Below, one piece after another: positions 1,419-30,534 of a stretch of DNA of 31,521 nucleotides. The notes beneath the pieces were generated by a model. That model did no database searches. It saw only the letters and a list, made by a program, of their open reading frames with translations, and was not told where the DNA came from. The position numbers and the translations under genes are program-made. The stretch covers positions 1-31,521 of IMG/VR virus record IMGVR_UViG_3300037422_000339. The stretch is one strand, 5' to 3'. The first letter of the stretch is position 1. Every line of letters starts with the position of its first letter. The stretch is from a virus. Its lineage: Duplodnaviria > Caudoviricetes.

Positions 1419-2357
1419 TTACCCTATCAAAACAGAGGGCACACCGACTATCGGTATGCCGGTTATGTAATCAACCGGGTGGCTAAGTGTCGATACCGCA
1501 AGACCCTGAGATACTGCGGGGCCTACCGACACGGACGGGGCCTTCAACGACGCGAGGGTGGCGCCCTCGAGCGCGAGGGTCTGACCGCGAATGCTGACCT
1601 GCCCGATCGCCACGGCCTCGAGACCACCCGTCGAAGAAAGCCGGTAGCCCCGACAATTGATCGTGTACTTGCCGCGCGCCTTCAGCGTCGCCTCGCCCTC
1701 GACCAGCACGTCTTGCCGGCCCGACACCAACTGCTGGTTGTCGCCCGCGACCGCAACGAAGAGCTTCTGATTGACCTTGACGACGACCGATCCGTTCGGG
1801 TGGATCTCGACGAACGACTTGCTGGGGCCGTGCGTGACGCCGATCCGTTCCTTGCCGGGCGTGTCGTCCAATTCGACCAGGTGCCCGGCGCCTGGCGTCT
1901 TGAACACGAAGTTGTGAGGGTACTCGGGCGGACCGTACGGATCTGAGGGTTCTTGTAGCTGGGCGCTGTCGGCGCCCGACCCCGTAGTGGTGCCGCGAGG
2001 ATCACGGATCTCGTCGACCAGACCGAGCGCTGCCAACGGGATCTGGGACTGCTCGCCGGCCTGCGCCCAACCGGCCCCCACCACGACGGGACGGTTAGCG
2101 TCCTCGGCCTCGAAGACGACGTGGACGAGAGCGTCGAGCGGCGGAACCGCGAATCCACCGGTGTTCTGGCCGGCAACCGGTTGCAAGACGCGCGCCCACG
2201 CCAGATCGTACTGACCGCCAAGCTCGGGAACCCGGACCTTTACGCGGCCGATCTTCCGGGGGTCGTCCCGGTCGGTCACGACCCCCAGGTAGACGCCGGG
2301 GTACCGGCGTCCGGCGCCGGGGCTGTTCGCGCTCGTGTGGGTGCGGGCCTGCGTCAT
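1419..2357 (-). CDS. Baseplate central spike (gpV / T4 gp5 / Vgr OB-fold family)
   Basis: YLGVVTDRDDPRKIGRVKVRVP...WARV...GGFAVPP...VHVVFE...PVVVG OB-fold signature; GHLVELDDTPGKERI and beta-helix-like C-terminus. Confidence 0.93.
   Translation of the reverse strand: MTQARTHTSANSPGAGRRYPGVYLGVVTDRDDPRKIGRVKVRVPELGGQYDLAWARVLQPVAGQNTGGFAVPPLDALVHVVFEAEDANRPVVVGAGWAQAGEQSQIPLAALGLVDEIRDPRGTTTGSGADSAQLQEPSDPYGPPEYPHNFVFKTPGAGHLVELDDTPGKERIGVTHGPSKSFVEIHPNGSVVVKVNQKLFVAVAGDNQQLVSGRQDVLVEGEATLKARGKYTINCRGYRLSSTGGLEAVAIGQVSIRGQTLALEGATLASLKAPSVSVGPAVSQGLAVSTLSHPVDYITGIPIVGVPSVLIG
2172..2185. repeat. Dispersed palindrome, 13/14 match (in spike gene)
   Basis: GGCAACCGGTTGCA. Confidence 0.75.
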
Positions 2358-3595
2358 GGGCCAACCACCGCCGTGCCCTCTTGAGGACTGTCGACCGTCA
2401 CGTCGATCCTACGGCTCGACGGGCCCGCCGGGTTGAAGTGGTCGTCGAGCCGGCCAACGCCCGGCCGCACCACCTCGAACTGCATGTCGTAGCCGCCGGG
2501 GCCGATCCGGTGGGTCACGGCCGTCACGTAGTAGTCGCCGCTCAAGTGGCCGATCCCCACGATCGAGACGATCTGGCGAGCGTGAAGCTGCTCGATACCG
2601 CGGACGTTGCCGGACGCACACACGACCCACTCGGCCGCCCGGTTGAACCCCTGGACTTGTTGGCGAGCTTCCCCCTCGGTCTGCTCGTGGCCTTCGCCCA
2701 TGACGTAGCGGCGCGGCTGTGTCCGGTCCCACGCGAGATCCCGCCCCAACGTGAAGCCTGGTCCCCCGGACTGTCGGATCGACTGGGCGACGGGGTCGAG
2801 TGATCCGTCGGTACGGAACTCCCACTCGGCCCCGGTGGTCCGGTCGATCCCGCTCTTGGTCCAAGCCGCGCCCTTGACCCACGGGTCCGACACGACCTCG
2901 AAACGGCTGAGTAGCCCCGTCTCGCCACCGCCGTAGTAGAGCACCAGATCAGACCGCTCCAGCCGAGGCTGGTGGAAGTGGAGCACACCGTCGCGCACGT
3001 AGAAGTCGTAGCCGTAGAGCAGCGCTCGGTTCTCAAGGAACTCAGCGTCGGTCATGCCCAGTTGGGCCACATGCTCGTGGACAGGGTCGGTCGGCTCAAT
3101 GTCGGACTCGAGCCGATAGGCCCCCGCCACCTTGTCGGCAATGTCGCTGTCGCGCAGGTTCTCGTAGGTGCGGCGTTCTTCCGAGAGCGACAGCGGCCAC
3201 TCTTCGCTGAAGCATTCCAACGTAATGGTCGCGACCGCACGGTTACGAAACGCCCACCGCGGCACCACCGAGTAGTAGAGGCCGCGCCGCACCAACCGGG
3301 TCGCCTGCCAGCCTGTGAAGAACTCGACTTCGAGGCCCCGACCCTGAAGTAGATCGTGGTCGGTGAACCTGAGCCCGCTGTTCTGTAGCACAAGCGCGGC
3401 ACGGCCCATGCCGCGCGCCCGTTCTTCGACGCACAGCTTGACGACGCGGTCGTCCAGCAATTCGTCCCGCAGGTCATGGCCGCCGATCCTGACCATGCGG
3501 GTCGAAGCCGAACGATCGACCGTCCGACCAACCCCCGCTTCAGGGGCGACCGGATCGGGCGCCGGCTGTTCGAGGATCCGGCAGATCTCAGGCAA
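2354..3595 (-). CDS. Baseplate hub / phage late control D (VgrG-like) protein
   Basis: RRTYENLRDSDIADKVA, QLGMTDAEFL..RA..YGYDFYVRDGVLHF, GIGHLSGDYYVTAVTHRI motifs; position before the spike. Confidence 0.9.
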   Translation of the reverse strand: MPEICRILEQPAPDPVAPEAGVGRTVDRSASTRMVRIGGHDLRDELLDDRVVKLCVEERARGMGRAALVLQNSGLRFTDHDLLQGRGLEVEFFTGWQATRLVRRGLYYSVVPRWAFRNRAVATITLECFSEEWPLSLSEERRTYENLRDSDIADKVAGAYRLESDIEPTDPVHEHVAQLGMTDAEFLENRALLYGYDFYVRDGVLHFHQPRLERSDLVLYYGGGETGLLSRFEVVSDPWVKGAAWTKSGIDRTTGAEWEFRTDGSLDPVAQSIRQSGGPGFTLGRDLAWDRTQPRRYVMGEGHEQTEGEARQQVQGFNRAAEWVVCASGNVRGIEQLHARQIVSIVGIGHLSGDYYVTAVTHRIGPGGYDMQFEVVRPGVGRLDDHFNPAGPSSRRIDVTVDSPQEGTAVVGP

Positions 3596-4058
3596 TCAGC
3601 ACCACGTCGGTCAACTGGGCCTCTTCGTACTTGAGCGCCGCGTCGATCGGTGAGCCGCTTTGGCCCACCAGGTCGGTGTCGGCCACGACCACGGTCTCGG
3701 GCCGGAACGCGATCTTGTCGGTCGCGGTCGCGAACGCTTGGTCGAACTCGACCAGGAACAGAATCGAGCCCGGCTGGATCAACGAGCGAAACCGTCGGCC
3801 CGCCGTCGGGACCAGGCAACCGGTTGCCGGATCCAACGCCTGACCGTTGCGGTTCCACGCCCTGAGCGCGACGAGTGCGTGCGGCGCCGTCGATCGGATC
3901 CCGTAGAGCGGGATCAGGTGGTTGCCCGAATACAGCGCGAAGTTGTAGCGGACCAGCGAGTCGCCTTTGAGAAGAAGTTGCCCGTCGGCGATCTCACGGG
4001 CGAGACGGCTGTGCCGCTTGAGCGCGTCGAGCGGCACCAACGGGACGGGCAGGCTCAT
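3588..4058 (-). CDS. Hypothetical protein
   Basis: 156 aa; ATGA overlap with the LysM gene and 8-nt overlap with the hub gene. Confidence 0.75.
   Translation of the reverse strand: MSLPVPLVPLDALKRHSRLAREIADGQLLLKGDSLVRYNFALYSGNHLIPLYGIRSTAPHALVALRAWNRNGQALDPATGCLVPTAGRRFRSLIQPGSILFLVEFDQAFATATDKIAFRPETVVVADTDLVGQSGSPIDAALKYEEAQLTDVVLIA
3815..3828. repeat. Dispersed palindrome, perfect (in CDS 3588-4058)
   Basis: GGCAACCGGTTGCC. Confidence 0.9.
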
Positions 4059-4366
4059 ACGAGCCCCAGATCGGCCAGCACGGCCGGATCCGGCACGATC
4101 AAGACGGTCCCGACCGGAATGTCAAGCGGGAACAGGATCTCGTTGACGTCGGCGATCAACCACCACAACCGCTCGTCCCGGTAGTAGCGCTCGGCCAACG
4201 TGTCCAACTGCTCTTCGCCCTCGACGACGTGCTCGATCGCACGGTCGCTAATGTCCTGGGCGGTGAAGTGGCGGCGCAGCGCCAGCACCTTCCGGCTGCA
4301 CCCGTCGTCAGTCTTGATCCCGGTGTAAGCGACACCCTGGAACCGACTGCCCCGCAGGATCGCCAC
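4055..4366 (-). CDS. LysM / tail-X-like baseplate protein
   Basis: HVVEGEEQLDTLAERYYRDERLWWLIADVNEILFPLDIPVGTVLIVP is the LysM-like signature of contractile-tail baseplates. Confidence 0.9.
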   Translation of the reverse strand: MAILRGSRFQGVAYTGIKTDDGCSRKVLALRRHFTAQDISDRAIEHVVEGEEQLDTLAERYYRDERLWWLIADVNEILFPLDIPVGTVLIVPDPAVLADLGLV

Positions 4367-9871: not shown

Positions 9872-12433
9872 TTACGACTCGGTGACGTCAGCGGTACCGT
9901 CGAAGATACCGACGGTGAACAAGATCTTCTCGGCGGCGAGCGGCGGGTTGATCCCCGAATCGACGTTGAGTTCCCCTCGCAGCCGCGAGTCTTCGGTGTT
10001 GTTCTCGCTGTCGCACTTGACGAATTGAGCCTGGCCGAAGTCGTCGTTGGGGTAGAGGCCACCCTTGCGCCAGAGATCCCGGTAGAAGCTCTCGATCGAC
10101 TTACGGATCGTGCGGAACAGCGTCGGCTGGATCGGGGCGAACAAGAAGCCCCGCAACGACGCCGACACGCTGATCTTCACGAAGTTGAGCAGCCGCCGGA
10201 CGTTGACGTAGTGGCGCCCGTCCCGCAGGTTGCTCAACGTGCGGATACCCCAGGGACGCGTACCCTCGCCCGGGAACGTGCGGATCACGTTGATCCCGAG
10301 CGGGTCGAGAATGTCCTGCTGGCCGTCGGTCACGCGAACGGCCGGGCCGATCACCTCGCGGAGCAACCGGTTGCCCGGCGGCGTCCACACGCCCGACTCG
10401 GCGTCGACCTGCGCGTAGACCCCCGCCATGATCCCGCTGGGCGGCGCCAGCTTGATCGCGGTGCGGCTCGACGCGTAACGATCGCGGATCTCTTGCCACG
10501 GGTAGTAGAGCGCCGAGTAGCTGGTGTCGCGGTTGTGGACGTTGAGCCGCCAGTCCTTGACCTCGACGGGCTGGTCCATGCTACTGGGCGGATCGACCAG
10601 CGCGATCAAGTTGGTTTTTCCCTCGGCGAAGTCCGAGAGGGCCTGCTGGACCGCCTGGGTGGTAACCCCCGGAATCGCGACGGTGTTGACGTCACCGGCG
10701 TTGAGCGCCGCGATCAACTGCAAGCCGCTGGCCGGGTCGGTCGTGCCAATGTAGTCGTTGTCGGTCGGGACGCCGCCGTCGTTGCCGCCCGTCAACAGCA
10801 GGTTCACGACGGGGGCCGGGCGATCGTTGATATCGGGGCTGATCACCGGGTTGAGATCGACGAGCGTCACGTTGAGCGACTCGTTGGAATCGCCCGACAG
10901 ACGAAGCTCGATCCAATCGGTCTCGTCGGTGTCCTCGAGCGACAGGTTCGAGTGGGTCCGATCCGTCTGGTTGTCGACGATCACGGTCAGGTTGAAGTGG
11001 TGGGACGTGACGGGCACGCCGATCGCGAACGTGAAACCGACGGCCGCGTTGAGCGTCAACTCGCTGCCGTTGACCTGCGTGACCACCCGGAAGATCACGT
11101 TGGTGCCGTCGTCGAGCGACAACTCGGTGCCGACCCGAGCGTGAATCGCGCTCGACACCTTGATCTTGGTGTCGGCCGCCACCGCCGCGGCCGACAAGGC
11201 CGTGCGAACCCGGTGGGAACTGGCCGTGTGGGCGAGGGCGCCGACGGCGATCGGCGCGCCAATCACGATCGCCTTGAAGTCGATCTGCTTGTTGACGACG
11301 TCCACGGCGTTGACGTGGACGATCACGGTGGTGGTGCCGTCGCTGATCTTGACGACGTCGCCGACCTCGGCCTTCGACACGTCGGCGAGCGTCGCGGTGG
11401 TGGCGCCGGTCGCGAGGATCGCGGTGGTGGCGGCCCTCCACCGCTCGGTCGTGACGGCCACGCTGTTGCCCCACGAGCCGACGTTGTGGGCCAGCACCGT
11501 CGCAATGCTGATCGGCGTCGCGTTGGTGCCGGTAACGAGCCCGGCGGGCAGGCCGAACACGGCAGGCGCGGCCGTCACCTCGAGCGTGAAGGCCAAGCCG
11601 GCGGTCAGATGGGTGATCCGCAAGGCGCCGCTGTTGCTGGTGGCGGTGGCGCCGACCAGACCGGCCAGCAGCGCCACGACCTCGGCGATCGTCACCGCGT
11701 CAATGTTGACGACGTTGCCGGTACCGGTGGTGGTGCCGACCGTGTGGCCGATCTCGACCAAGGCGCTGCCGCCTGTGATCGACACGATCGACCCGGTGCC
11801 GCGCGTGTCCGAGCGAATGTCCACCTCGGGGCCGGTCACGACCGCGCTGCCGCCCGTCAACTGCGAGTTGATCGTGGCGGCGACGGCGGCGGCCGTCGTA
11901 TCGCCCGCCCCGAACGTAATGGTCTGGCTGGGGCCGCCGTCAATCGACAGGATCAACGTGTCACCCGTCAAGCTGACGATCGCGAGGCCGGCGCCCGCAC
12001 GAATTGCACGGGTCGCCAAGAACGTGAACGTCTGGGGGGCGCCGCCGTCCACTTCGATCGAAATGGCGTCGGCCGGTTCGAGGTTGAACGGGGCGACGCC
12101 GGTCCCGTCGATCTGGGCGGCGGTCGCGCCCGTGCCGATCGCCGGCAGATCCACCTCGGCCTGAAGCGCCCCGGTGCCGACGACGCGGGCGCCATACATG
12201 CGGCGGCCACCGTTCTGGAAGAACAGGTAGGCCGCGTCCTCCCCGAAGCTGTCGGGGTAGTTGGTGCCGTAGAGCCGCTGCCAGTCGCGGAAGCTCGTGA
12301 CGAACCCAAGCTCGTCGGTGGGTCCGCGACGCGACGTGAACACCATGCCGAACGTGCTGGTGGACGCCGCCTGAATGGTCGGCGTGCCGCCACGCTCGAA
12401 CGTGTAGACGTCAGGGTGAAGCAGTTCGACCAC
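9872..12433 (-). CDS. Tail sheath protein with multiple inserted domains
   Basis: N-terminal HPDVYTFE, FFQNGGRRMYGARV; C-terminal SALYYPW, PPSGIMAG, GVWTPPGN, GINVIR, WGIRTL, YVNVRRL. Confidence 0.96.
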   Translation of the reverse strand: MVELLHPDVYTFERGGTPTIQAASTSTFGMVFTSRRGPTDELGFVTSFRDWQRLYGTNYPDSFGEDAAYLFFQNGGRRMYGARVVGTGALQAEVDLPAIGTGATAAQIDGTGVAPFNLEPADAISIEVDGGAPQTFTFLATRAIRAGAGLAIVSLTGDTLILSIDGGPSQTITFGAGDTTAAAVAATINSQLTGGSAVVTGPEVDIRSDTRGTGSIVSITGGSALVEIGHTVGTTTGTGNVVNIDAVTIAEVVALLAGLVGATATSNSGALRITHLTAGLAFTLEVTAAPAVFGLPAGLVTGTNATPISIATVLAHNVGSWGNSVAVTTERWRAATTAILATGATTATLADVSKAEVGDVVKISDGTTTVIVHVNAVDVVNKQIDFKAIVIGAPIAVGALAHTASSHRVRTALSAAAVAADTKIKVSSAIHARVGTELSLDDGTNVIFRVVTQVNGSELTLNAAVGFTFAIGVPVTSHHFNLTVIVDNQTDRTHSNLSLEDTDETDWIELRLSGDSNESLNVTLVDLNPVISPDINDRPAPVVNLLLTGGNDGGVPTDNDYIGTTDPASGLQLIAALNAGDVNTVAIPGVTTQAVQQALSDFAEGKTNLIALVDPPSSMDQPVEVKDWRLNVHNRDTSYSALYYPWQEIRDRYASSRTAIKLAPPSGIMAGVYAQVDAESGVWTPPGNRLLREVIGPAVRVTDGQQDILDPLGINVIRTFPGEGTRPWGIRTLSNLRDGRHYVNVRRLLNFVKISVSASLRGFLFAPIQPTLFRTIRKSIESFYRDLWRKGGLYPNDDFGQAQFVKCDSENNTEDSRLRGELNVDSGINPPLAAEKILFTVGIFDGTADVTES
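10362..10375. repeat. Dispersed palindrome, 13/14 match (in sheath gene)
   Basis: AGCAACCGGTTGCC. Confidence 0.75.
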
Positions 12434-12461: not shown

Positions 12462-12475
12462 GGCAACCGGTTGCC
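12462..12475. repeat. Dispersed palindrome, perfect (intergenic, upstream of sheath)
   Basis: GGCAACCGGTTGCC. Confidence 0.9.
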
Positions 12476-19711: not shown

Positions 19712-19725
19712 GGCAACCGGTTGCC
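19712..19725. repeat. Dispersed palindrome, perfect (intergenic, upstream of Zn-finger gene)
   Basis: GGCAACCGGTTGCC. Confidence 0.9.
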
Positions 19726-20164: not shown

Positions 20165-21058
20165 TTACACCCACGATCCCGTCACGGCCGACGCTCGGAA
20201 ACGGCTCAGGATCGCGTCGGCCCGCGGATCCCCCGTTCCGGCAAACACTTTACCACCCTTGACCCCCTCGAAGAACTCGACCTCGTAGTTGTCGGTTTCT
20301 TCGCGGCGCATACGCTTGCGCTCGTCGGCGCCCGTTTCCTCGTCGCTGCCGGGCGCCGAAACGTTCGCCAGGACCGTACGGACCACCGCTTCCCGTACCA
20401 GCCGGGGAACTTGACCGTAGCGGATCACCGACGAGCCGACCGCCGCGCTCTTTGGGCTGGGGTCGATCTCGACGACTCCCGGCGTCGGAACAGCCCCAAC
20501 GATCACCCAGAACCGCCGGTCGATCAACAGCAGATCGTTCCGGCCCAGATCCGTCGTGTCGCCAAGATCTAGCGTCACACCCCCCAGGGACAGCGCACTC
20601 GTCAGCGTCGTTTCAATCTTTACGTCAAGATCAAGCCAGCCGAACGTCGCGGTGAACCTGACGTTTTGGTAGTCGTAGGGGAACCGGTTGTCAGGAAACG
20701 CGCGAAACGCCCGATCAAATGCCCAGGGGCTCTTGTCAAACGGCCGCAACTGGACTCGCCGCTCGTCCACCACGTAGGTGTTGGCCGAGAGCGGCGTGAG
20801 CGTGCCGTCCGCCGACAAGTGTTGGACCGCCACCAACTCAATGATCTTGTTGCGGTACGGCTCTTCCACGTAGATCTGCCCGAGCCCGTTGACCGGGACG
20901 GTCTTGTAGACGGGACCGAACACCTGTTGGGTCAGGCTCTCGATCAGGGCAGCCGAATACTCGAGCCGATCAATCAACACGTCGTCCGGGTAGACCGTCA
21001 CGTCCGAAAGGCCCGCGGCTCTCAAGTCCGCGATCCTGGCGTAAACGGATCGGCCCAC
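20165..21058 (-). CDS. Head-tail adaptor (HK97 gp6-like) with inserted domain
   Basis: YARIADLR...LEYSAALIESLTQQVF...FPYDYQNVRFTATFGW...VPRLVREAV...AILSRFR. Confidence 0.8.
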   Translation of the reverse strand: MGRSVYARIADLRAAGLSDVTVYPDDVLIDRLEYSAALIESLTQQVFGPVYKTVPVNGLGQIYVEEPYRNKIIELVAVQHLSADGTLTPLSANTYVVDERRVQLRPFDKSPWAFDRAFRAFPDNRFPYDYQNVRFTATFGWLDLDVKIETTLTSALSLGGVTLDLGDTTDLGRNDLLLIDRRFWVIVGAVPTPGVVEIDPSPKSAAVGSSVIRYGQVPRLVREAVVRTVLANVSAPGSDEETGADERKRMRREETDNYEVEFFEGVKGGKVFAGTGDPRADAILSRFRASAVTGSWV

Positions 21059-21081: not shown

Positions 21082-21621
21082 CTAGACCGAGATCGACTGG
21101 CTGACGGACCCGTCGCGATTCAGGATCTCGACGGGCGACTCGTTGCCGGTCCTGGGGCGAGGGGCTCGAGGATTCGGCACCGGCGGCTGTACCAGCGGAA
21201 CCCCAGCCAACGGGGACCGCCCAACCGGCTGAACGGCGCGCCCACCAACCTGTACGACCGCGGCGGGCTGGGCGCCGCTGTTGGGGGCTGGGGGCGGTGC
21301 TTGCACGTTACGAGCGCCAGGCGCCACTGCTTGGGGTAGCGGGGCCTTGCTGTAGACCGCGAACGACTTGGTCTTCTTGGGATCGAACCCGTTGACCAGG
21401 CCGACCTGATCGAGCGGGACCCCCGCCTGGTTGCACTCGACCATGACGTCACCTCGGGCCCGGAAGAACTCGAGATCGGTCTGCTGCGTGACCGGCACGA
21501 TCTGGCCGCGCACGAGGATCACGGCCTTCTGGCCGAGGCGGTTGTAGAACCGGTAGTCCAAGCAGTTCTTGAGCTTGAAGTACCCGAGAACCTTGCGGGG
21601 GGTGCTGATCGACGGCGTCAT
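21082..21621 (-). CDS. Hypothetical capsid-associated protein with Pro-rich C-terminus
   Basis: ATG 21619-21621 behind SD GAGGT; follows the capsid gene. Confidence 0.7.
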   Translation of the reverse strand: MTPSISTPRKVLGYFKLKNCLDYRFYNRLGQKAVILVRGQIVPVTQQTDLEFFRARGDVMVECNQAGVPLDQVGLVNGFDPKKTKSFAVYSKAPLPQAVAPGARNVQAPPPAPNSGAQPAAVVQVGGRAVQPVGRSPLAGVPLVQPPVPNPRAPRPRTGNESPVEILNRDGSVSQSISV

Positions 21622-21631
21622 GCTGTACCTC

Positions 21632-21671
21632 AAAACGGAAGTGGGGCGGCCGACAGTTCGGCCGCCCCACT
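21632..21671 (-). terminator. Intrinsic terminator-like hairpin after major capsid gene
   Basis: Perfect 14-bp stem AGTGGGGCGGCCGA / TCGGCCGCCCCACT (21640-21671), 4-nt loop, then TCCGTTTT on the minus strand. Confidence 0.75.
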
Positions 21672-21704
21672 ACTTTACCGTAGCGCCGTCTTGTTGGCTA
21701 GACG

Positions 21705-23051
21705 CTAGGGCGTGGCCGTCGCGACGTGGCGCTTGCCGCGCAGGTTGATCCCCAGCACGCACGCGTCGAGGTTCTCGACCTGCGCGTCCGTCTGGTTGTA
21801 CGCAATCGTCTCGATCCGATCGAAGTCCTTGTTGAACTCCGTGAACATGCGAGTCCCCGCCAGGATCCCCCAGATCAGGTTCATGGGGTTGGTCAGCATG
21901 ACGAACGTGCCCTCGTAGACGGTACCGGTCACGGCCGCGCCCGTCACCGTCACGGGCGTGACCCCGTCGGTGAGGCCGAACGTGTAGCTGGCGTCGCGGG
22001 TTGCCGGGATCGTAATGGCCACCGACGTGGCCGCGCCCGTGTTGGTCGTCTTGATCCGCAGACGCCCGTAGGTGTCGTCGAACGCCACGGCCAGCAGGCC
22101 CGCCGCCACGAACGCCGCATTGATCGTCGCGACGATCTCTCGGGTCTCACGGACCCCCGCCGTAAACGTCACGGTGAGGGGCGCGCCACCGTTGATCGCC
22201 ACGACCAACTGGTCGTTGACGCCCGACTCGATCTGGAACGCCCCGAAGGCCGAGCCGCCAACCTCAGCGGGCGTCGCCTCGCTGACGGTCAGCGGCAGGT
22301 TGTTGGGGATCAGCGGGACCATCTGGAGGGGCCGCCCGTAAGGGGCAATGTTGGCCCCGGCGGACCCGAGAGCGGCGTCTCCCAGGCCCGTCTGGCGGCC
22401 CTGAAGGACGTCCTGCCAGTCGATCACGGTGGTGTGGCCCACAATGAACCGAAGGTTTGGGTCGCCCTGGTACTGCGCCGGCATCATGCGAAGCATCTCG
22501 CTGAACACGCCGGGCTCAAGCTGAGCGCCGCCGAGATCGAGAACGTGACCACCGTCCCGCGCCAGCTTGTACCAGCCGTCGTTGCCGACCAGCAGGTTGC
22601 CCAGCTTGTCGTTGGGGGCGGGCGTCAGCGTCGTGTCACCCAGCAGCGCCAGGTACTCGAGGTCCGTCGCCGAACGGCCAGCCATGGCGCGCATGGCCGT
22701 CATCTCGAACTCCTCACCCTCGATGTTCTGCTGCAACACCTCGGTGGTGAGGTCGTACTGGCTCTTGGTCTTGCGGGCGTCCAGGTGGACCTGGTTGGAC
22801 AGCAGCTTGTTGTTCTGCTGGGGGTTGCTGTTCTCGCTGACCGAGATCGTGATGGGCTCGCCCGAGTGCAGCTTGCTGATGTCCATGGCGGCCTGCGGCA
22901 TCACCACGGTGCGGGCCGCCGCCAACAGGCTGGCGTACCGCTTCATCAGCACGATGTACTGGGTCTGCTGCTCACGAGTGAGAAGACCCTGCCCGCCGGC
23001 AAAGTCCCCCGTCTCGATCGCCTTGAGCACCGCTTCCATGTCGTAAGTCAC
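21705..23051 (-). CDS. Major capsid protein (HK97 fold, P2/PBSX-like) with ~115-aa insertion
   Basis: GLLTREQ, EVLQQNIEG, DLEYLALLGD, NDGWYKLA, MPAQY, LTNPMNLIWG; SD GAGGAG; follows the protease. Confidence 0.92.
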   Translation of the reverse strand: MTYDMEAVLKAIETGDFAGGQGLLTREQQTQYIVLMKRYASLLAAARTVVMPQAAMDISKLHSGEPITISVSENSNPQQNNKLLSNQVHLDARKTKSQYDLTTEVLQQNIEGEEFEMTAMRAMAGRSATDLEYLALLGDTTLTPAPNDKLGNLLVGNDGWYKLARDGGHVLDLGGAQLEPGVFSEMLRMMPAQYQGDPNLRFIVGHTTVIDWQDVLQGRQTGLGDAALGSAGANIAPYGRPLQMVPLIPNNLPLTVSEATPAEVGGSAFGAFQIESGVNDQLVVAINGGAPLTVTFTAGVRETREIVATINAAFVAAGLLAVAFDDTYGRLRIKTTNTGAATSVAITIPATRDASYTFGLTDGVTPVTVTGAAVTGTVYEGTFVMLTNPMNLIWGILAGTRMFTEFNKDFDRIETIAYNQTDAQVENLDACVLGINLRGKRHVATATP

Positions 23052-23090
23052 GTTAGTCTCCTCTTGCTCGTTCCTGGCTTCGAGCCCAGG

Positions 23091-24962
23091 TTACCGACGG
23101 CTCGCCATATAGGCCAGCCGCGCCTTGTCGAACAGACCACGGTAGGGGTTCGCCGCGTCGGGCTGGCGCACCTGACCCCCCGCGTCCTTGTTGACCACGG
23201 TGTTCTGCGGCGTCTGCCCCGTCGGCGTCTGCCCGATCACCACCTGGTTGTCCTGCTGGGGGGCCGACTGCCGCACGCCCGCCGCCGCCTCGAGCTTGCT
23301 GAGGCGCTCGCCCGACGTCTTCTCGATCGAATCGAGACGCCCGTTGATCCCGGCCGTCTGCTTCTCGACCAGCATCTTGAAGCCGTCGGCCATGCCGACC
23401 AGCCCCTTGGCAAGCTCCTGAGCGAGGGCCTCGAAGCTGACGCCGAACTGCCGGACCACCTCGGCGTTGTTGTTGGGCAGACCCGTCAGCGCCTTCGCGA
23501 CGATCTGCTCGATCTGAGCGGCCGACACCGACTTCTCGGTGGTCTCGGGGGCCGGCTCGGGCTCGCCCAGCAGCTTGCTCATGGCCTGACGGATCTTGCG
23601 GATCGAGTCGCCCGACTTCTCGACGAGCCCCGCCGCCTTGACGGCGTCCCACGCCTTCACCAGCGCCGTGATCTCGATGGGCTCGGCCGGCGGGGCCGGC
23701 GGATCGAACGTCTTGGCGATCCGACCCAGAACCTCGAGGCCCTTGCTGACCGCCTCGGCGTTGATCGTCGCGATCAGCGACGAAGCAGCGGCCGGCGTGG
23801 CCGACTGGCTCGCCGCCTTGTTGGTGTCGTTGGCCGTGGTGATCGGGGCCTCCGGGGCCGCCGTCGGCGTCGCGCTCGCGCTCATGTCAAGTCCCTTCAT
23901 GTCGAAGCCCATGGCCTCGTGGTACCGATTGAATTCGTCCGCGCTGTAGTCTCGCAACTCAGGCGGTTCCCTGTCCAGATCACGATAGTGTCGGGCCAGG
24001 TGGTTGTAAACGGCAGAACGGTCCGCCGCCGGAATGTTGGTTCCGCCTCGCGCCCCCAGCAACGCAGCCATGGCGGCGATCACGCCGCGCTCATGCGTCA
24101 CCAGGGCACCGTCCACCAAGGTGTGGTGGGGCAGCTTGTAGGCCGTCTTCAACTGGGGGGTGGTTCCGTCCGTATCTTCGATCCACGCGTGGGCGGCCTT
24201 GTAGCGGTCCCAGTTGCCGTCACCCAGGACAGCGTTGCTGGCGGCTGAGTTCCAAGACCACGCGGCGCCCCGAAGCGCCGGGTACGCGCGATAGGGCACG
24301 GCCGTTTTGGCAACCGGTTGCCCGTCGGTCTGGGGCGGGACGGTTTTGCGCGGCTCGTTCACGACGATCGGGTCGGCCGCCGCAATCGGAACCTCTTCGG
24401 TGGTGGGCTCACCGCCGAAGCAGTCCTTAATGACTGCGTCAACGAACTTGGTTCGGGGAACCGCCGCCTGGCCCGGGCGGGTCGTCGCAATGTGCTCGAG
24501 CACGAGATCGTCGAGCACTCGGATCCGACGACCTTTCGGGCCGTCCTCGAACTTCACGGCCTTGGGGTTCTCGAGGTTCAGGAACCCACCGATCGACAAC
24601 TGCTTGGTGGGCTTCCCCGACGACACCTCTCGGAACAGATCCATGGACTGGGGGTAGCGGTCGTCCAACTCGAAATCGACGTGGAACTGCGTGACGGTCT
24701 TGTCGCCGTTCTGAACCTTCTTGACCCAAGCGTCATGGGTGTGGCCGAACCCGAACGTCGCCCGGTGGTTGTCGAGCAGCGACAGCTTGTTTTCCTTGGC
24801 CTGTTTGACCATCGACGAGATCGCACGATCCGACATGCGATCCCCAGTCCGGTCCTCAGCGGAATCCGACGCGATCCCTACGACGTGAAGTTTGCCCTCA
24901 GGCGTCTTGTATGCCTGGGCGTAGTCCATGTCGAACGAAAAGTCGCGCCGCGTGTCGGTCAT
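23091..24962 (-). CDS. Prohead protease-scaffold fusion
   Basis: VVGIASDSAEDRTGDRM, LLDNH, QLSIGG, LEHIATTRPGQAAVP protease motifs; central YKLPHH domain; helical C-terminus. Confidence 0.85.
   Translation of the reverse strand: MTDTRRDFSFDMDYAQAYKTPEGKLHVVGIASDSAEDRTGDRMSDRAISSMVKQAKENKLSLLDNHRATFGFGHTHDAWVKKVQNGDKTVTQFHVDFELDDRYPQSMDLFREVSSGKPTKQLSIGGFLNLENPKAVKFEDGPKGRRIRVLDDLVLEHIATTRPGQAAVPRTKFVDAVIKDCFGGEPTTEEVPIAAADPIVVNEPRKTVPPQTDGQPVAKTAVPYRAYPALRGAAWSWNSAASNAVLGDGNWDRYKAAHAWIEDTDGTTPQLKTAYKLPHHTLVDGALVTHERGVIAAMAALLGARGGTNIPAADRSAVYNHLARHYRDLDREPPELRDYSADEFNRYHEAMGFDMKGLDMSASATPTAAPEAPITTANDTNKAASQSATPAAASSLIATINAEAVSKGLEVLGRIAKTFDPPAPPAEPIEITALVKAWDAVKAAGLVEKSGDSIRKIRQAMSKLLGEPEPAPETTEKSVSAAQIEQIVAKALTGLPNNNAEVVRQFGVSFEALAQELAKGLVGMADGFKMLVEKQTAGINGRLDSIEKTSGERLSKLEAAAGVRQSAPQQDNQVVIGQTPTGQTPQNTVVNKDAGGQVRQPDAANPYRGLFDKARLAYMASRR
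24309..24322. repeat. Dispersed palindrome, perfect (in protease gene)
   Basis: GGCAACCGGTTGCC. Confidence 0.9.
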
Positions 24963-24980
24963 GGGGCCTCTGTAAACCGC

Positions 24981-26666
24981 TTACGTTTTACCGAGACGCA
25001 ACTCGGAAGGCAACGACCTAACACGATTCACCGCAACCTTTACAGCTTCGTCGAACACGGCGGTCGCGTTGGTCGGTGGTGTCTCGGCGGTCTCGTCACC
25101 GCCCTCTTCCTCGTCCTGATCGTCGGCGGGCTCTTCGGACCCTTCCGCCCCGTCCGGCTCTTCGTTGACGGGTGGGGCTTCGGCGTCCTCACCTTCGGGC
25201 TCGACCGCCAATTCACTGGCGTTGGTGAGGCGGCCTTCCGCCGCGAGCAGCGCAATTGGCAGCGGAACCTGAGCCCACTCTTCCGTCTTGGGGAACGGCT
25301 CTCGGCCTAGATCCGCTCGGATCTCGTTGGGCGACAACACCCCCGACAACGAATAGGACCGGTGGACGACCGCCCGTTCAGTCGGGTCCGACGTCTCGGG
25401 CCGAACGAACCGGAACAGTACCTTCGTGGCTTTCAATTCCTTGCGGACGATCAGCTTGTTGATCGTGTGCTCTTTGAGGGCTCGTGCCGGTCCGAACTCT
25501 TGCTCGTCGGTCGTGGCCTTCGCGACGACCGCCGACGCCTTCGTGAGCTTCTCGCTCTTGAAATAAACCTCGGACAACCCCAGCGCCTCACGGATCTCTT
25601 CGTCGTTCATGCGACGGTAGTTCAAGAAACTACCGTCCTCGTTCTTTCCGACCGTGAGGGGCTGAAGCTCGAGCGTCGCCGTATTCTTGTCGTCTACGCC
25701 GATACCCTCTCGGGTGGCCTGCAACACGATCAACCGACCGTGCTGGTCGGGGCCCTGGCCCTCTCGGAATAGATTGGAGATCTGGTCGCGGCTCTTATCG
25801 TCGAGCACACCGCCCGTCACCAGCACGGCCATGCGGGGCACGCTGTCGTGTTTCATGAGCGACACGTTGCGCTTGGCCGCGTGGAAGTTTCCAGCAATGG
25901 CCGCACCAGCCGGAACAAACCGCGGCACCCCGTAGTACTCGCTGGTGGGGCTGTACAGCAAGAAATGCATGATCTCGCTGGCGCGGTGCTCGATCGGAAG
26001 GGGGCCTTCAACCCCCCGATTGAAGCCGGGCTCGCCCGCGAAAGCACCGTTGCGCGCGTCCATGACGCGGTCGTCGCCGAACCGCTTGAAGTACCGACGG
26101 CCAACTTCCCGGATCTGAACGAATCCCCGATAGTTCCTGAGGATCCTCACCGTCGTGGACATGACGTGGAATGCCGACTTGACCTTGCCGGCGCCGTCCC
26201 GCACGAACTCGACGTAGCCGTTGCCCGTCGCCTCTTCGTCGGTGACGACGCATTCCATGAGCGCGTTGAACGGGACCGTCGGGTTAATGTCCTCGAAGAA
26301 CGCCTTGACCCGAAGGATCTCAGCCTGGATCTGGGCCTTCTCTCGGTCGGTGGTGTCTCGCGTGATCTGCTGGCCCGGCACCACCGTCCAGCCGAGCCCC
26401 ACCGTGTTGCGGGCGATCACCCGGATACCACGGGCCAGGCGGGTCGCGCGGGCCAACTGTGACGCCCAGAGCCGCAAGTCGATCGGCGGCTCGACGATCT
26501 GATCGCCTGATAGTCCCTCGCGCGGTTCGATCTGGTTGGATCCCGGTTGCCAACCCTTCTCAACAGAATCGCCCCGCCGCTGCGTAACGGGGCTGACCAA
26601 CCACTCGATTTCGCTGATCGAAGCGTTGGCGGCGTCGTTTGGTCCAAACATTTCCATACGGCTCAT
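24981..26666 (-). CDS. Portal protein (PBSX family-like)
   Basis: IVEPPIDL, DEEATGNGYVEFVRD, YFKRFGD, SEYYGVP, DGSFLNYR, GVLSPNEIR; acidic C-terminal tail. Confidence 0.93.
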   Translation of the reverse strand: MSRMEMFGPNDAANASISEIEWLVSPVTQRRGDSVEKGWQPGSNQIEPREGLSGDQIVEPPIDLRLWASQLARATRLARGIRVIARNTVGLGWTVVPGQQITRDTTDREKAQIQAEILRVKAFFEDINPTVPFNALMECVVTDEEATGNGYVEFVRDGAGKVKSAFHVMSTTVRILRNYRGFVQIREVGRRYFKRFGDDRVMDARNGAFAGEPGFNRGVEGPLPIEHRASEIMHFLLYSPTSEYYGVPRFVPAGAAIAGNFHAAKRNVSLMKHDSVPRMAVLVTGGVLDDKSRDQISNLFREGQGPDQHGRLIVLQATREGIGVDDKNTATLELQPLTVGKNEDGSFLNYRRMNDEEIREALGLSEVYFKSEKLTKASAVVAKATTDEQEFGPARALKEHTINKLIVRKELKATKVLFRFVRPETSDPTERAVVHRSYSLSGVLSPNEIRADLGREPFPKTEEWAQVPLPIALLAAEGRLTNASELAVEPEGEDAEAPPVNEEPDGAEGSEEPADDQDEEEGGDETAETPPTNATAVFDEAVKVAVNRVRSLPSELRLGKT

Positions 26667-26672
26667 ATGTTA

Positions 26673-26688
26673 CGGCAACCGGTTGCCG
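26673..26688. repeat. Dispersed palindrome, perfect 16-mer (intergenic, upstream of portal)
   Basis: CGGCAACCGGTTGCCG. Confidence 0.9.
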
Positions 26689-26733
26689 AAAAGAACACAA
26701 GACCGACCTGGACACGCGCCCGGTCAGTCTTGT
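26689..26733 (-). terminator. Terminator-like hairpin immediately upstream of portal
   Basis: Minus strand ACAAGACTGACCGGG-7nt-CCAGGTCGGTCTTGT (one G-U, one mismatch) followed by GTTCTTTT. Confidence 0.55.
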
Positions 26734-26760
26734 GGGGTTGAGGCGAAGAAGGGTTGGGTG

Positions 26761-27267
26761 TTAGCCGCTGCTGGGCCGGTCCGACCGACCCCTCATGGTT
26801 CCGCTCATGAGCCCGCCGGCCGGCGGGCTCGACAAGGCGTCACCGCGGGGACCCGGCGCGTCCGGGTGGGTCGGCGTCGCCGTCGGAAGCGCCGGGGTAC
26901 CGATCCGCTTGGGATCCATGGGGATCCGGCCGCCCGACAGCGCCGTGGAAGCAAGCCCGGCCTGCTCGGCCCGCATGGTCGGGGCGCCCAGCGCCAGCGG
27001 TGCCGTCAGCAGCTTGGCCGGCGCGTTCCTGGTGGCGGGCAGCCGGCCGGGCTGACCGGGATACGGCGTCGTACCCTCAGCCATGGGCGTGGGCGGCATG
27101 GCACCGCCCGGACCCTCGGCCCGCAGCGCCGTCGCGGCCATACGCTGGGTCCGCGAGGTCTTCGCGTCCTCAATGCCACCCACGACCGTACCGCCGGGCG
27201 TCATGACCGGCATGATCTTGCTGCCGAACGGACTCGTCGCCTTCGTGACCTGCATGGGCTGCTTCAT
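26761..27267 (-). CDS. Pro/Gly/Met-rich, probably disordered hypothetical protein
   Basis: 168 aa; SD GAGAGGA upstream of ATG. Confidence 0.7.
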   Translation of the reverse strand: MKQPMQVTKATSPFGSKIMPVMTPGGTVVGGIEDAKTSRTQRMAATALRAEGPGGAMPPTPMAEGTTPYPGQPGRLPATRNAPAKLLTAPLALGAPTMRAEQAGLASTALSGGRIPMDPKRIGTPALPTATPTHPDAPGPRGDALSSPPAGGLMSGTMRGRSDRPSSG

Positions 27268-27334
27268 GTTGTCGATCCTCTCGTTGGGTATTTATTTGTA
27301 TTGAGGAAGCGGGGCGGTGTGGACCGCGCTGAAC

Positions 27335-27811
27335 CTACGTCGGCTCAGGCGCCCACGACGAGACAGCCATGCCCACGACCCCGTCTTCGATCTTGAAGTA
27401 GGCGACGCCGTCGGGCCCAGGCCGCTTGAAGCCGGGCTGGCACCACGACTGCCACTCTACCCCGGTGACCGCGCCCTTCTCGAAACTGCTGCACTGACGC
27501 ACTTCAAGCCACGAGGCCCTGGAATGCAGGCTTCGCCGCTGCGTGCTGAACAGCACCCCCGCGATCTTCCAGATGGTCGTACCGCCGCGATACCCGCTGA
27601 CCCAGCAGGATCGCGTGTAGCTGGTGGCGGGCGTCTCGGCGGTACTGACGGCTGTCAAATGATTGCGACACGCGTAGCAATCAGTCTGGTGGCCCGGCAC
27701 CACCGCGCCGCCCGAAGACCGCGCGATCACGTGCAAACACTCGCCGCACAAGGGCCGCGAGCCCCGCCAGCTTACCGCCGGCACCGCCACCTTGATCGCC
27801 GTATCGCTCAC
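27335..27811 (-). CDS. Hypothetical Zn-finger protein (CGEC...CYAC)
   Basis: 158 aa; GTG start with AAGGA SD. Confidence 0.65.
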   Translation of the reverse strand: MSDTAIKVAVPAVSWRGSRPLCGECLHVIARSSGGAVVPGHQTDCYACRNHLTAVSTAETPATSYTRSCWVSGYRGGTTIWKIAGVLFSTQRRSLHSRASWLEVRQCSSFEKGAVTGVEWQSWCQPGFKRPGPDGVAYFKIEDGVVGMAVSSWAPEPT

Positions 27812-28223
27812 GTCGCCGTCCTTGTTGCAGGGGCAGACCAGGTGTTTTTGGTCCGCTTCTTTGTCGCGCCAGAATCGTAACGACCCGCAGGGTACCTTAG
27901 CAAGCCCCCGTGACCCCTACGGTTGTGCGTTTTCTTTAGGGGCGGCGCCGCCAACTGTCCAGTGATAGGCGCAACCAGCAAAGAGTCTCCCGACAAGACA
28001 ACCGACTGGACAGCGGTTTCTAAACGGTGGGGGCGCGCCTCGTAGTCCTGACCGCCACTTAGCGTCGATCAAGTACATGACGGATCGTGCAGGGCCCCGA
28101 CGCTCTTATCGATCGGCAGGACGGCTCACAACCCCATCGTCGAACACCCACCACCCACCTGTGAAGCTCTACCAGGCCCCGGCGGGTTGATCGGGGGTGG
28201 CGGTGTGGGGGCGGATCCTAGTT

Positions 28224-28352
28224 TTAATCTGAACGGGCGACCAGAGAGCGCCCCAAAAACCGCCGCACCAAGTGGTCGATCACGCGGCCCAACACCCGGC
28301 GGAACAACCAGTCGGCGGTACGGCGCCACCAAGAAGTCCTGACAGACGTCAC
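28224..28352 (-). CDS. Small cationic amphipathic peptide (42 aa)
   Basis: Manual translation MTSVRTSWWRRTADWLFRRVLGRVIDHLVRRFLGRSLVARSD; GTGA overlap with upstream stop. Confidence 0.45.
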   Translation of the reverse strand: MTSVRTSWWRRTADWLFRRVLGRVIDHLVRRFLGRSLVARSD

Positions 28353-28636
28353 GGAGGCGGTCGGCGCTTGCGGACTGGACGGCGCCGCGTGGGTGCCGGG
28401 GGCGTTTGACCCCGGGTCTCAAGCCGACCGTCCACGGCCTGCACGAACTGGACGGCCCGACCCGACCGGTACCCCGCCAGGAATGCCTCGGCGACGAAGC
28501 CTTCGGCCCAAGCGGGGGCCCGCTCAAGCTTGGCGGGGTTGAGAATCCACCGCTCGAACACCTGCTTGGCGTCGGCGTCAACGCTCCCCACGGTCAGCCT
28601 CATATCCTTCGTGTCCCGCAACACCTTGCCAGCCAC
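28349..28636 (-). CDS. Hypothetical protein
   Basis: Fits operon packing; true start may be ATG at 28603. Confidence 0.6.
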   Translation of the reverse strand: MAGKVLRDTKDMRLTVGSVDADAKQVFERWILNPAKLERAPAWAEGFVAEAFLAGYRSGRAVQFVQAVDGRLETRGQTPPAPTRRRPVRKRRPPP

Positions 28637-28787
28637 ACGCGCAGCAAAGCCTCAGGCGCCTTACGTAGTAGCGCAAGACAGCGTCCGGCAAGATCCACCG
28701 CCACAACGCCCTGAAGTGCTTCCTGGGACAGCCTGGATATGGTCCAGGCCAGCGAATCACACGTTGTGTCGGTAGCGTTTCCGTCAT
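28578..28787 (-). CDS. Small hypothetical Cys/His protein (69 aa)
   Basis: ATGA overlap with RNase H stop; CPRKH...CCAC. Confidence 0.45.
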   Translation of the reverse strand: MTETLPTQRVIRWPGPYPGCPRKHFRALWRWILPDAVLRYYVRRLRLCCACGWQGVAGHEGYEADRGER

Positions 28788-29440
28788 GGTGCCGACTGTA
28801 CCTTCCGGGCCTTGTTGGCGGCTCGAGCCTGGCGCTTCATTTCGGCCTTGTAAAAGAACTGCTGGCGCTCTGCGACGACGTCCCACCCGGCCTTGAAGCC
28901 GGTGGGCGGTAGACCCTTGAGCTTGGCGCAGGTACCGAAACACAGCCGATCGGCCCAGTCGTTGAACACACAGAAGTGGCTGCCGTCGCGTTGGTGGCCG
29001 CGCGTGTGAATGAATCGGACTGAGAGGCGCTTGACCTGCACGGTCTTGAGGATCGTGATGGTCAGGTCCACAACGGTGGCGTCGTTGGCGCCCCAGTTGC
29101 CAGTAAGCCACGCGGCCGACCCCAGGTAGTCGCTGACGAGCGACACAACCGACCCGTTGGGCTGGCACGAGACCCCAAGCAGCACGCCCCGCAACTCGGC
29201 GCCAACGTTCCGGGTTGAGTCAGGCGTCGTGAACGCGGACGTCCCGATCACCCAACGAAATGGACTGACCGTCACGGCCGTATGCCACCCCGACGACGAG
29301 CCGTCCGTGAAGACCCACCGGTGCTCGGCTTCAGGATTGGGCGGCTCGGCAATGTAGCGGCTGGTTCGCAACTGAACCCACCGGTTGGCTCGGCCCGCTG
29401 CTGTCTTGGGCTCAGTAGTCCACACGACCGGATCGATCAC
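28784..29440 (-). CDS. rnhA: Ribonuclease HI-family protein
   Basis: Catalytic motifs VFTDGS, RNVGAEL, VSDY, HTRGH, NDWADRL; start placed at GTG overlapping the upstream stop (GTGA). Confidence 0.88.
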   Translation of the reverse strand: MIDPVVWTTEPKTAAGRANRWVQLRTSRYIAEPPNPEAEHRWVFTDGSSSGWHTAVTVSPFRWVIGTSAFTTPDSTRNVGAELRGVLLGVSCQPNGSVVSLVSDYLGSAAWLTGNWGANDATVVDLTITILKTVQVKRLSVRFIHTRGHQRDGSHFCVFNDWADRLCFGTCAKLKGLPPTGFKAGWDVVAERQQFFYKAEMKRQARAANKARKVQSAP

Positions 29441-29901
29441 GAGTAGCGCTCTTCGCAGAACGGGCAATCGAACGTCCTGCCGTCCGACGGCCTCGTCACC
29501 ACACCCTCGCCCTTGCAGTGGGGGCAGTCTCGGTACCCGAACAACGGTTCTGGCGCGGGTGTCGGCTCACCTCGAGCCAACCTGAGCATGAGACTTCCGA
29601 GCGGCATTGGGTCGGTACTGCGCTCGAGCGCCAACAAGTGGCTCAAGATCTCGCTGGTGGGGATCGCGAAGGTGACGAGATCGTTGAGGCGTGTCTCGAG
29701 ATCCTGGTCGGATTGAAACACAGCCTCGAACGTCCGATCACGCATGGCTCTGGCGAATCTCACGACCGACGCGACCTGCACGACCTGTCCGGGGGTGAAC
29801 CGCCCGCCCCGGAAGTAGTGGGCGAGCAACTGCTGGGACGTCTCTTCGTCGATCTGGCCGCCGCGCCACGCCTGTTCCAATGTTCTGGTTGCTTGGTCCA
29901 T
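29437..29901 (-). CDS. Hypothetical protein with C-terminal DnaJ-type Zn ribbon
   Basis: CPHCKGEG...CPFC. Confidence 0.75.
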   Translation of the reverse strand: MDQATRTLEQAWRGGQIDEETSQQLLAHYFRGGRFTPGQVVQVASVVRFARAMRDRTFEAVFQSDQDLETRLNDLVTFAIPTSEILSHLLALERSTDPMPLGSLMLRLARGEPTPAPEPLFGYRDCPHCKGEGVVTRPSDGRTFDCPFCEERYS

Positions 29902-29907
29902 GTCACT

Positions 29908-29935
29908 GTTTTACCATAGGATCTAACTGTGTCAA
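29908..29935 (-). promoter_or_regulatory. Sigma70-like promoter, probably leaderless transcript
   Basis: TTGACA-16nt-TAAAAC with TG extension; ATG begins 7 nt after the -10; no SD. Confidence 0.5.
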
Positions 29936-30534
29936 CCGGAACCCCCGACTTCGTCGATCCCACCACACTCGTGGTCGAGCCGTTGGGTCCACTGGGCGAG
30001 TTCCCGCCACCCAGCCTCTTCTTCCCGACGATTGCGTGGGATCGGGCGGCTCTTGGGCCAGTCCAACAGAAACGGACGATCCCGTTCCGGCAGGGGATCC
30101 GAGTGGTCCGCCGGCACCGACTCGGGCGCCCACGGCTTAGGCCCGCACCCGCCCCACGAGCGCAGCAAGTTGGCCGCGTGGGCCTGTCCGCACCACCCGC
30201 ACGGCACCGGGACGGCGCCGCTCGTCGCTATCCACGCGGAAGCCTCTAGCTCGTGCCGCTCAATCATGACGACGGCGTCTTCTACGTCGGGAAGGTACCG
30301 GTGGGATTCAGGAAGCCGTTTGTAAACCGATTCGTAAACCAGTTCCCCACCGGGCGGGGCTTCCGGGACCAATTCGTCACCGGGTGGCGAGTCGGTTGAA
30401 CTGGCCGGTTCTACCTGGGGTCCAGCCGGCAACCGGTTTCCGAGAAGCTCTAAGAAACGCCCAAGCGAACAACCGTCCTGGGGACGGTGTCGTGTCGGTA
30501 CCGGTTGAACCGACGGTTCTTCCAACAGCAACAC
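29932..30534 (-). CDS. Hypothetical protein (CGWC..H motif)
   Basis: Start reassigned to GTG 30532-30534 just after the upstream stop; start uncertain. Confidence 0.55.
   Translation of the reverse strand: MLLLEEPSVQPVPTRHRPQDGCSLGRFLELLGNRLPAGPQVEPASSTDSPPGDELVPEAPPGGELVYESVYKRLPESHRYLPDVEDAVVMIERHELEASAWIATSGAVPVPCGWCGQAHAANLLRSWGGCGPKPWAPESVPADHSDPLPERDRPFLLDWPKSRPIPRNRREEEAGWRELAQWTQRLDHECGGIDEVGGSG
30428..30441. repeat. Dispersed palindrome, 13/14 match
   Basis: GGCAACCGGTTTCC. Confidence 0.7.

Follow-up and report, generated by a model that had tools for sequence, protein, structure and literature searches.

A dispersed 14-bp palindrome in a contractile-tailed phage as the likely binding site of a protein family predicted to be of ParB type but without the CTPase clamp

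The DNA considered here, a 31,521-nucleotide (nt) stretch called the window throughout, is the whole of IMG/VR record IMGVR_UViG_3300037422_000339 and contains the head-tail block of a large, uncultured contractile-tailed phage (myophage), whose structural genes are all on the minus strand. A 14-bp palindrome is present in nine copies, within genes as well as between them; this array is real, and selection on it acts at the level of the DNA. The palindromes are likely binding sites of a phage-encoded protein, whose gene would lie outside the fragment. The candidate reader is a dimer of the PHROG 17202-like family, which is found in relatives of the window's phage and is predicted to have a DNA-binding domain of the ParB/KorB type without the CTPase clamp. 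We regard it as likely that this family reads the palindromes, and just as likely that each subunit reads one half-site of the GCAA(C) type. That the protein acts as a genome-wide repressor, a CTPase-less ParB/KorB-type dimer on palindromes, is a reading toward which we lean with little better than even confidence.

When the whole window was searched for the 14-bp palindrome with up to two mismatches, nine copies were found (five perfect, three matching at 13 of 14 positions and one at 12 of 14), exactly where an earlier, sequence-only reading of this DNA had placed them. That reading had also estimated that fewer than one copy would arise by chance, and this is borne out: 100 dinucleotide shuffles gave a mean of 0.29 copies and a maximum of 2, and none reached nine. 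The copies are listed below together with an uncertain tenth; no strand is assigned to them.

2172..2185: palindrome, 13/14, inside the baseplate spike gene, reads QPVA
3815..3828: palindrome, perfect, inside open reading frame (ORF) 3588-4058, reads ATGC
10362..10375: palindrome, 13/14, inside the tail sheath gene, reads GNRL
12462..12475: palindrome, perfect, intergenic, 8 nt past a stop codon and 28 nt ahead of the sheath start
19712..19725: palindrome, perfect, intergenic, 3 nt past a stop codon and 21 nt ahead of the GTG at 19690 of a Cys-rich (Zn-finger-like) ORF
20679..20692: palindrome, 12/14, inside ORF 20165-21058, reads DNRF
21134..21147: candidate weak tenth site, uncertain, 3 mismatches, inside ORF 21082-21633
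24309..24322: palindrome, perfect, inside the putative prohead protease gene at a variable stretch, reads QPVA
26674..26687: palindrome, perfect, intergenic, 7 nt ahead of the portal ATG
30428..30441: palindrome, 13/14, in ORF 29932-30621 (GNRL), whose coding status is doubtful

The mean density is about one copy per 3.5 kb, and all nine AACCGGTT octamers of the window fall within the nine copies. Perfect 14-mers would be expected 0.0003-0.005 times in the window (Markov orders 1-5), compared with the five seen. In the candidate at 21134, two of the three mismatches are in the central pair, which varies among relatives. For coding DNA the null consisted of 2000 synonymous-codon shuffles, in which each protein was kept; the ORFs of the window were picked by hand, as the gene caller erred on GC-rich genes. 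With up to one mismatch, five coding sites compare with a shuffle mean of 0.33, and with up to two, six sites compare with a mean of 1.8; none of the 2000 shuffles reached either count. Two perfect coding sites compare with a mean of 0.02 and were equalled in 1 of the 2000. Thus, the counts beat a codon-preserving shuffle, a check that had been proposed from the sequence. Three of the nine copies are intergenic (P=0.025, given 7.5% non-coding DNA), in the short gaps ahead of the portal, sheath and Zn-finger genes that had been described before, and the other six are in ORFs. As had also been reported, the intragenic copies use all three reading frames (QPVA, GNRL and ATGC, to which DNRF is now added), and the 20-bp identity in inverted orientation between 19706-19725 and 3815-3834 is real. 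The argument that the copies use A/T-ending codons fits some of them, in which uncommon codons are present (GCA, GTT and CAA, at 4%, 12% and 18% of their synonymous sets), but not the sheath and ORF 20165 copies, which consist of common codons. Similarly, the copy at 30428 is in place, but since the coding score of ORF 29932 is below zero (-0.17), it is perhaps outside any gene. The spacing of the copies in the window is not significantly even (coefficient of variation, CV, 0.61; P=0.13).

Relatives were found with the major capsid gene as query; G-numbered records are longer relatives or other fetched records, and L-numbered ones are loci or contigs. The exact 14-mer matched 83 IMG/VR loci, but no locus has a further perfect copy in its fetched DNA, so no further piece of the window's phage was recovered; a scan of a genome collection (2 of 64 parts) gave scattered single matches. 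The 12-bp core is present as a single copy on short contigs of the closest capsid relatives, as GCAACCGGTTGC in L240 and L254 (two of the six examined), and a variant of it is on L238, another short contig of a capsid relative. In L240 the core occupies the same variable protease stretch as the window's copy, in a different reading frame, which argues for selection on the DNA, as had been proposed from the window. Seven of 16 longer capsid relatives have 14-bp dyads of their own (G001, G008, G010/G011, G015 and G017/G018), and the other nine have none. Most relatives' palindromes are GCAA-N4-TTGC; G001 has three copies of AGCAACCGGGTGCW, one of them directly ahead of its portal gene. When the arms of TGCAA-N4-TTGCA are counted in G018 at every spacer from 0 to 10, all 16 pairs have spacer 4, as would be expected of a fixed-geometry dimer.

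The repeats could instead function as RNA hairpins, that is, as terminators or processing sites, given that several copies lie a few bases past stop codons and that, in G010 and G015, a T run comes after some of them. This is most improbable: asymmetric variants occur in either orientation in same-strand genes (G018, G008), the arm sequence itself is conserved, beyond pairing, and none of the 15 terminator-like matches in positions 12000-31521 of the window coincides with a site.

Around L301 ~950-1050 (G010), four tandem copies or near-copies of the phage's palindrome, ~26 bp apart, are positioned directly ahead of the terminase large subunit gene, and G015 likewise has a site ahead of that gene. 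Differently spelled sites lie in the gap that separates the tail tube gene from its neighbour in G010 (22402), G015 (22113) and G018 (70166); the window has no site between its tube gene and the neighbour. Other patterns were rejected as site arrays, namely 'TATA-N5-TATA' in G020, which resembles a -10 promoter box, and 'GCAA-N6-TTGC' in G009, whose spacers are unrelated. In sigma54 promoters the GG-GC spacing is 10; here it is 9, and a sigma54 promoter reading was rejected.

The window has no DNA-binding candidate by Pfam, PHROGs or a profile of the PHROG 17202-like family. Candidates were found in G017 and G018, which overlap at both ends and together form an apparent circle of ~104 kb (a recorded contig that encodes the same protein has 104,294 bases). 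Pfam and PHROG scans covered 107 of the 108 called genes of G018 and 26 of the 27 genes unique to G017, and among them there was no LacI, cI, LexA or integrase match; the scanned genes of G001, G008 and G020 likewise include no LacI-family regulator. The earlier lead to LacI thus has no counterpart among the scanned genes of this near-complete genome. G018 has a ParB_N gene near the terminase gene and a 248-amino-acid (aa) protein (PHROG 17202) encoded after RecA, exonuclease and RuvC. The ParB_N gene was rejected as the sole reader: homologues occur without arrays in G004 and G014 (fragments), and arrays occur without a match in G033 and phage SIO-2. The PHROG 17202-like family, which comprises 1,789 clusters at 50% identity, has homologues in G001, the closest relative of the window (capsid 69%, portal 61%), and, in diverged form, in the array-less G020; none was found in G003, G006, G009, G013 and G021 or in the fragments G008, G010, G011 and G015. 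G017 also contains a stand-alone gene for the RNA polymerase alpha C-terminal domain (L267 6069-6368; PF03118, E 9e-10).

The AlphaFold model of the 248-aa G018 protein (predicted local distance difference test, pLDDT, 73.5) is helical from residue 18. Residues 17-145 of this predicted model align with Spo0J (1vz0; Z 8.4, root-mean-square deviation, rmsd, 3.5, 107 residues), with ParB-parS (6s6h; Z 8.2, rmsd 8.8, 121 residues) and with KorB-OB (1r71; Z 6.7, rmsd 3.4, 108 residues), and the top Foldseek match is Spo0J-parS (prob 0.99, E 0.2). The alignment is confined to the DNA-binding domain, and a ParB_N (CTPase) domain had no match in eight of eight family members. By sequence, the protein has no match in the PDB or Pfam and belongs to no Pfam family; an Atlas search retrieved unnamed clusters only, with DUF3102 and ParB-helix-turn-helix (HTH) clusters below the 0.9 bar, and a search with the G001 protein retrieved only itself. 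The homodimer model scored 0.74, compared with 0.10 for the best control, with contacts agreeing at at least 96% and a pLDDT of at least 80; 20 of 30 solved homodimers reach the mark used, as does 1 of 23 monomers. The protein is accordingly modelled as a ParB/KorB-type DNA-binding domain without a CTPase clamp, predicted to form a homodimer. The parS/Noc lead of the sequence-only reading agrees with the fold predicted for the relatives' protein. That a dimeric protein would bind along the genome, as it had proposed, is made likely by the comparison and the homodimer model.

The palindromes and the family are connected in both directions. When 46 loci were chosen by the protein alone (42 of at least 10 kb; 28 protein clusters), a dispersed spaced palindrome at p<1e-7 was present in 19 of the 42, compared with 3 of 49 control viral loci. 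In 41 protein-chosen loci there are 102 GCAA-N4-TTGC sites, versus 23 with N3 and 26 with N5; the control loci have 21 beyond their 49 selecting sites, versus 23 (N3) and 18 (N5). Among 12 whole or near-whole records, eight carry 10-47 sites at p<=1e-11 (G050, chosen by DNA, is one of these), and a pair from a single lineage has 16 and 21 sites that resemble GGACCATATGGTCC, a pattern picked afterwards. In the reverse direction, 80 loci chosen by TGCACACGTGTGCA include two contigs with the family, both multi-copy, and 77 loci chosen by TGCAACCGGTTGCA include a contig with 19 TGCAAC-N2-GTTGCA sites, 14 of which have the window's 12-bp core, that encodes the family (E 2e-31). The recognition helix also varies with the site: K/H-K is found with GGACC, T-K with CCAAT, and R-V and R-T with GAAAT. 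L484/G033 and L485 carry the protein with 13-bp, not 14-bp, dyads.

A number of observations weigh against this assignment. The window itself has no PHROG 17202-like gene (best E 5.6), and its link to the family is through kinship and motif likeness. Three or more GCAA-N4-TTGC sites are present in the fetched stretch for only 11 of the 28 protein clusters, several others being spelled otherwise; G020 and G042 have the protein and no palindrome array, and G049 has three sites. Conversely, multi-copy L578, L590/L591, L625 and L626/L627 have no family match in their fetched stretches. The covariation of helix and site is imperfect, in that the sites of G036 and L485 differ although both have the common RKAxY helix, and the GCAAC site of G001 goes with another helix. 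A Z of about 8 is middling for a helical protein, and Raf1 is interleaved among the matches at Z 7.9. Finally, TGCACACGTGTGCA palindromes also occur in unrelated prophages with full-length ParB, although these 35-40-kb prophages still support a reader of the ParB type. The prophage-like records are L317, L328, L357, L362, L363, L369, L371, L374, L387 and L390, with a ParB of ~750-830 aa where complete, and many of them have TGCACACGTGTGCA every 6-7 kb.

The reader could instead be a phage ParB of full length, or some other HTH protein of the phage encoded outside the window, with the CTPase-less family only sharing the clade. The ParB of those prophages has GERRW and HTH motifs, and further HTH genes are present in G018 and G001. 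We consider such a reader unlikely, since the two-way co-occurrence, the helix-site covariation and, in four genomes, a site at the promoter of the protein itself favour the PHROG 17202-like family, and since G033 and SIO-2 have sites without a ParB_N match.

The family is present in cultured phages. G038 matches Rhizobium phage L338C at 100% and carries 47 sites; the protein is also encoded by DLP3, DLP5, SIO-2, other Vibrio phages, Rhodobacter RcZahn and Aeromonas HJ05, so that the cultured hosts are Rhizobium, Rhodobacter, Stenotrophomonas, Vibrio and Aeromonas, and it is annotated as 'hypothetical protein'. A 109-kb circular Rhizobium plasmid record encodes the protein and has 41 sites, a 30-kb stretch of DLP5 has nine TGCAAT-N2-ATTGCA, and a stretch of SIO-2 has four weaker sites. 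Literature searches, mainly over openly readable texts, brought up no description of the family or of these palindromes in L338C, DLP3/DLP5 or SIO-2, and the string 'palindrom' does not appear in the DLP3 paper. According to the available part of a 2025 survey of ParB-fold proteins, the search was made by the CTPase domain (PMC12704722) and would therefore miss this family.

The palindromes might be operators of a host regulator of the LacI or LexA kind, or a host chromosome motif exploited by the phage: their 5-4-5 arrangement, often with CG at the centre, is like that of LacI and LexA operators. However, copies are few in the host families of two cultured carriers: Rhizobium-type sites number 0-3 per genome in 31 genomes from the family of an Ensifer genome, and sites of the DLP5 version number 0-2 per genome in 31 genomes from the family of a Xanthomonas genome, and for this reason the palindrome is not a host repeat, an alternative that the sequence-only reading had left standing. 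A Myxococcaceae genome matched twice in the scan shows no enrichment (6 copies versus 4 control in 8.4 Mb). Moreover, GCAA-N4-TTGC recurs in phages of 35-63% GC with differing hosts and tracks a phage gene. A host regulator or host motif is thus decidedly unlikely.

Placement relative to promoters in the relatives speaks to what the PHROG 17202-like protein would do. Sites lie 7-12 nt upstream of TTGACA in G038 (9 of 47), G037 (8 of 48), G035 (7 of 28), G018 (4 of 20) and G033 (3 of 20), where 0.06-0.16 would be expected; this coupling is found in five of the eight relatives tested, and G050 has one site so placed. In G038, G037, G035 and G018, one of the coupled sites stands before the promoter that serves the gene or operon of the protein itself. 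From sites 7-12 nt upstream of a -35 box, its own promoter included, the protein would hinder RNA polymerase; as a dimeric repressor it would regulate its own gene and damp sigma70-type promoters. The remaining sites, including all nine in the window's late block, may be roadblocks, or anchors that bridge or organise the genome. If binding is granted, repression is more likely than not to be the main job. A role specific to late transcription, as first proposed, gains no support, because relatives carry sites genome-wide and beside sigma70-type promoters.

Against repression stand several results. None of the window's nine sites is near TTGACA, and a promoter scan of positions 12000-31521 found two sigma70-like promoters only, neither at a site. 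There is no TTGACA coupling in G036 (0 of 19 sites) or G040 (0 of 16). Furthermore, a site centred near -50 could equally suit an activator.

The same protein and sites might serve mainly an architectural function. Dimers set at even intervals would then bridge the phage genome or compact it as it replicates, or would pass it on to a separately encoded ParB_N protein (a 'split ParB') for phagemid upkeep or packaging. Most sites in the relatives are away from TTGACA promoters, in short gaps past stop codons or inside genes, and spacing is evener than random in G038 (CV 0.60, 0 of 5000 simulations), G035 (0.53, P=0.0004) and G037 (0.69, P=0.005). A ParB_N gene is directly downstream of the HTH gene in G040 (31769-33419), G044 (57605-59790) and G046 (1458-3555), and 4-7 kb downstream in G018, G035, G037 and G038. 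In addition, DLP5 replicates as a phagemid, according to the parts available of PMC5834331 and PMC7326821, and one carrier was deposited as a circular plasmid. On the other hand, the spacing is not significantly even in the window or in G018, G036 and G040, and no ParB_N match was found in the site-bearing G033 (complete), G050 and SIO-2. ParA (PF13614) is over the cut-off in none of 19 records, including six near-complete ones (the window's own genome is a fragment), so classical ParABS partition, and with it the segregation function suggested earlier, is unlikely. In phages, ParB_N domains are often linked with DNA-modification genes, as described in the available part of PMC12704722, and the strict -35 spacing calls for a transcriptional explanation. 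We regard an architectural main function as possible but doubtful. Fairly unlikely is a split ParB across a large clade of tailed phages, in which a CTPase-less dimer bound every 2-8 kb would recruit a separate ParB_N protein, giving a viral nucleoid that silences early promoters and a phagemid maintained without ParA. The 19 records have no tyrosine integrase (PF00589), and serine integrases had no separate search.

The repressor proposed here is best compared with KorB of plasmid RK2, which the available part of PMC11790492 describes as a CTP-dependent sliding clamp with partner KorA; its proximal operators are 4-10 bp upstream of target promoters and others are far away. The two systems are alike in the ParB-family DNA-binding fold (predicted here), in palindromic operators near and far and in likely global repression. 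They differ in that the phage chain has no CTPase domain, no ParA was found and the carriers are 80-135-kb tailed phages. Because the CTPase domain is missing from the chain, the phage protein could not slide in the manner of KorB, and the phage system is not a member of the KorB/OB class, though it would work alike. Dispersal of palindromes of the KorB type is seen in the window; coupling to the -35 box is seen in G018, G033, G035, G037 and G038, and not in the window, G036 or G040.

In ParB and Noc, specificity is re-spelled by small sets of residues, in the recognition helix and in a helix that comes later (available part of PMC7383237), to which the helix and site variants seen here would be a parallel. 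As in ParB-parS and Noc-NBS, two DNA-binding domains are predicted here to sit on a two-fold palindrome; unlike in those systems, the phage chain lacks the CTPase, there is no ParA, and sites are spread genome-wide rather than clustered. Cluster O mycobacteriophages, as far as PMC4351075 is available, have more than 30 dispersed 17-bp dyads (7-3-7, with a variable spacer) in and between genes, mostly off promoters, and have neither integrase nor ParAB; a dimeric reader is predicted there, and none is identified in that text. The likeness is in the many dispersed dyads, intragenic and intergenic, not mostly at promoters, whereas the sites here are 14 bp and a specific protein family has been linked only here. 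No mycobacteriophage was among the 36 and 45 tblastn records of the family, in a low-sensitivity search. The stoperators of Cluster A, in the available text of PMC9283540, are 13-mers that lack symmetry, point in the direction of transcription and bind a monomer, in integrating temperate phages with an immunity repressor; the 19 records here showed no tyrosine integrase. They too are many phage-specific sites genome-wide, at promoters and in short gaps; however, the sites here are perfect or near-perfect dyads with variants in either orientation and a predicted dimer, so that the likeness to stoperators drawn earlier fails on symmetry.

The window encodes portal, putative protease, capsid, sheath, tube, tape measure and baseplate proteins, three of which are located as follows.

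24981..26666, minus strand: portal gene (PF04860)
21705..23051, minus strand: major capsid gene, query for finding relatives
9872..12433, minus strand: tail sheath gene (PF04984/PF17482)

Neither the window (26666-27811) nor G001 (L001 2007-8921) has a terminase gene ahead of the portal, and in G001 the genes that come after the portal-protease-capsid block are for DNA polymerase and helicase, not for tail proteins. Neighbouring 127-aa ORFs at 633-1016 and 1034-1417 (minus strand), alike at their starts and ends, have the look of tandem paralogues and no family match. Overlapping ORFs at 8193-9232 (minus strand), between the tube and tape measure genes, have the layout usual for a frameshifted tail assembly chaperone, which they may encode. 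An RNase H-like ORF (28784-29467, minus strand; PHROG 531, E 7e-8) is upstream of the structural block. Some 6-bp palindromes are depleted in the window (seen versus expected: CAGCTG, 0 versus 11.9; TTCGAA, 0 versus 10.6; TCCGGA, 0 versus 7.5; TGGCCA, 1 versus 15.9), which suggests restriction-site avoidance.

Dispersed dyads had been noticed in Cluster O, but no reader went with them; the present comparison connects repeats of this kind with one particular unannotated family. The cultured carriers L338C, DLP5 and SIO-2, which are new here, make the reading directly testable. On the reading proposed, the completed genome of the window's phage would be expected to add GGCAACCGGTTGCC copies and a family gene after ruvC. 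The sites could also serve as a barcode for linking contigs of one phage, and the natural series of helix and site variants provides a test bed for the evolution of specificity. If true, the finding would mean that the ParB DNA-binding domain can act clamp-free, as a phage master regulator or nucleoid protein.

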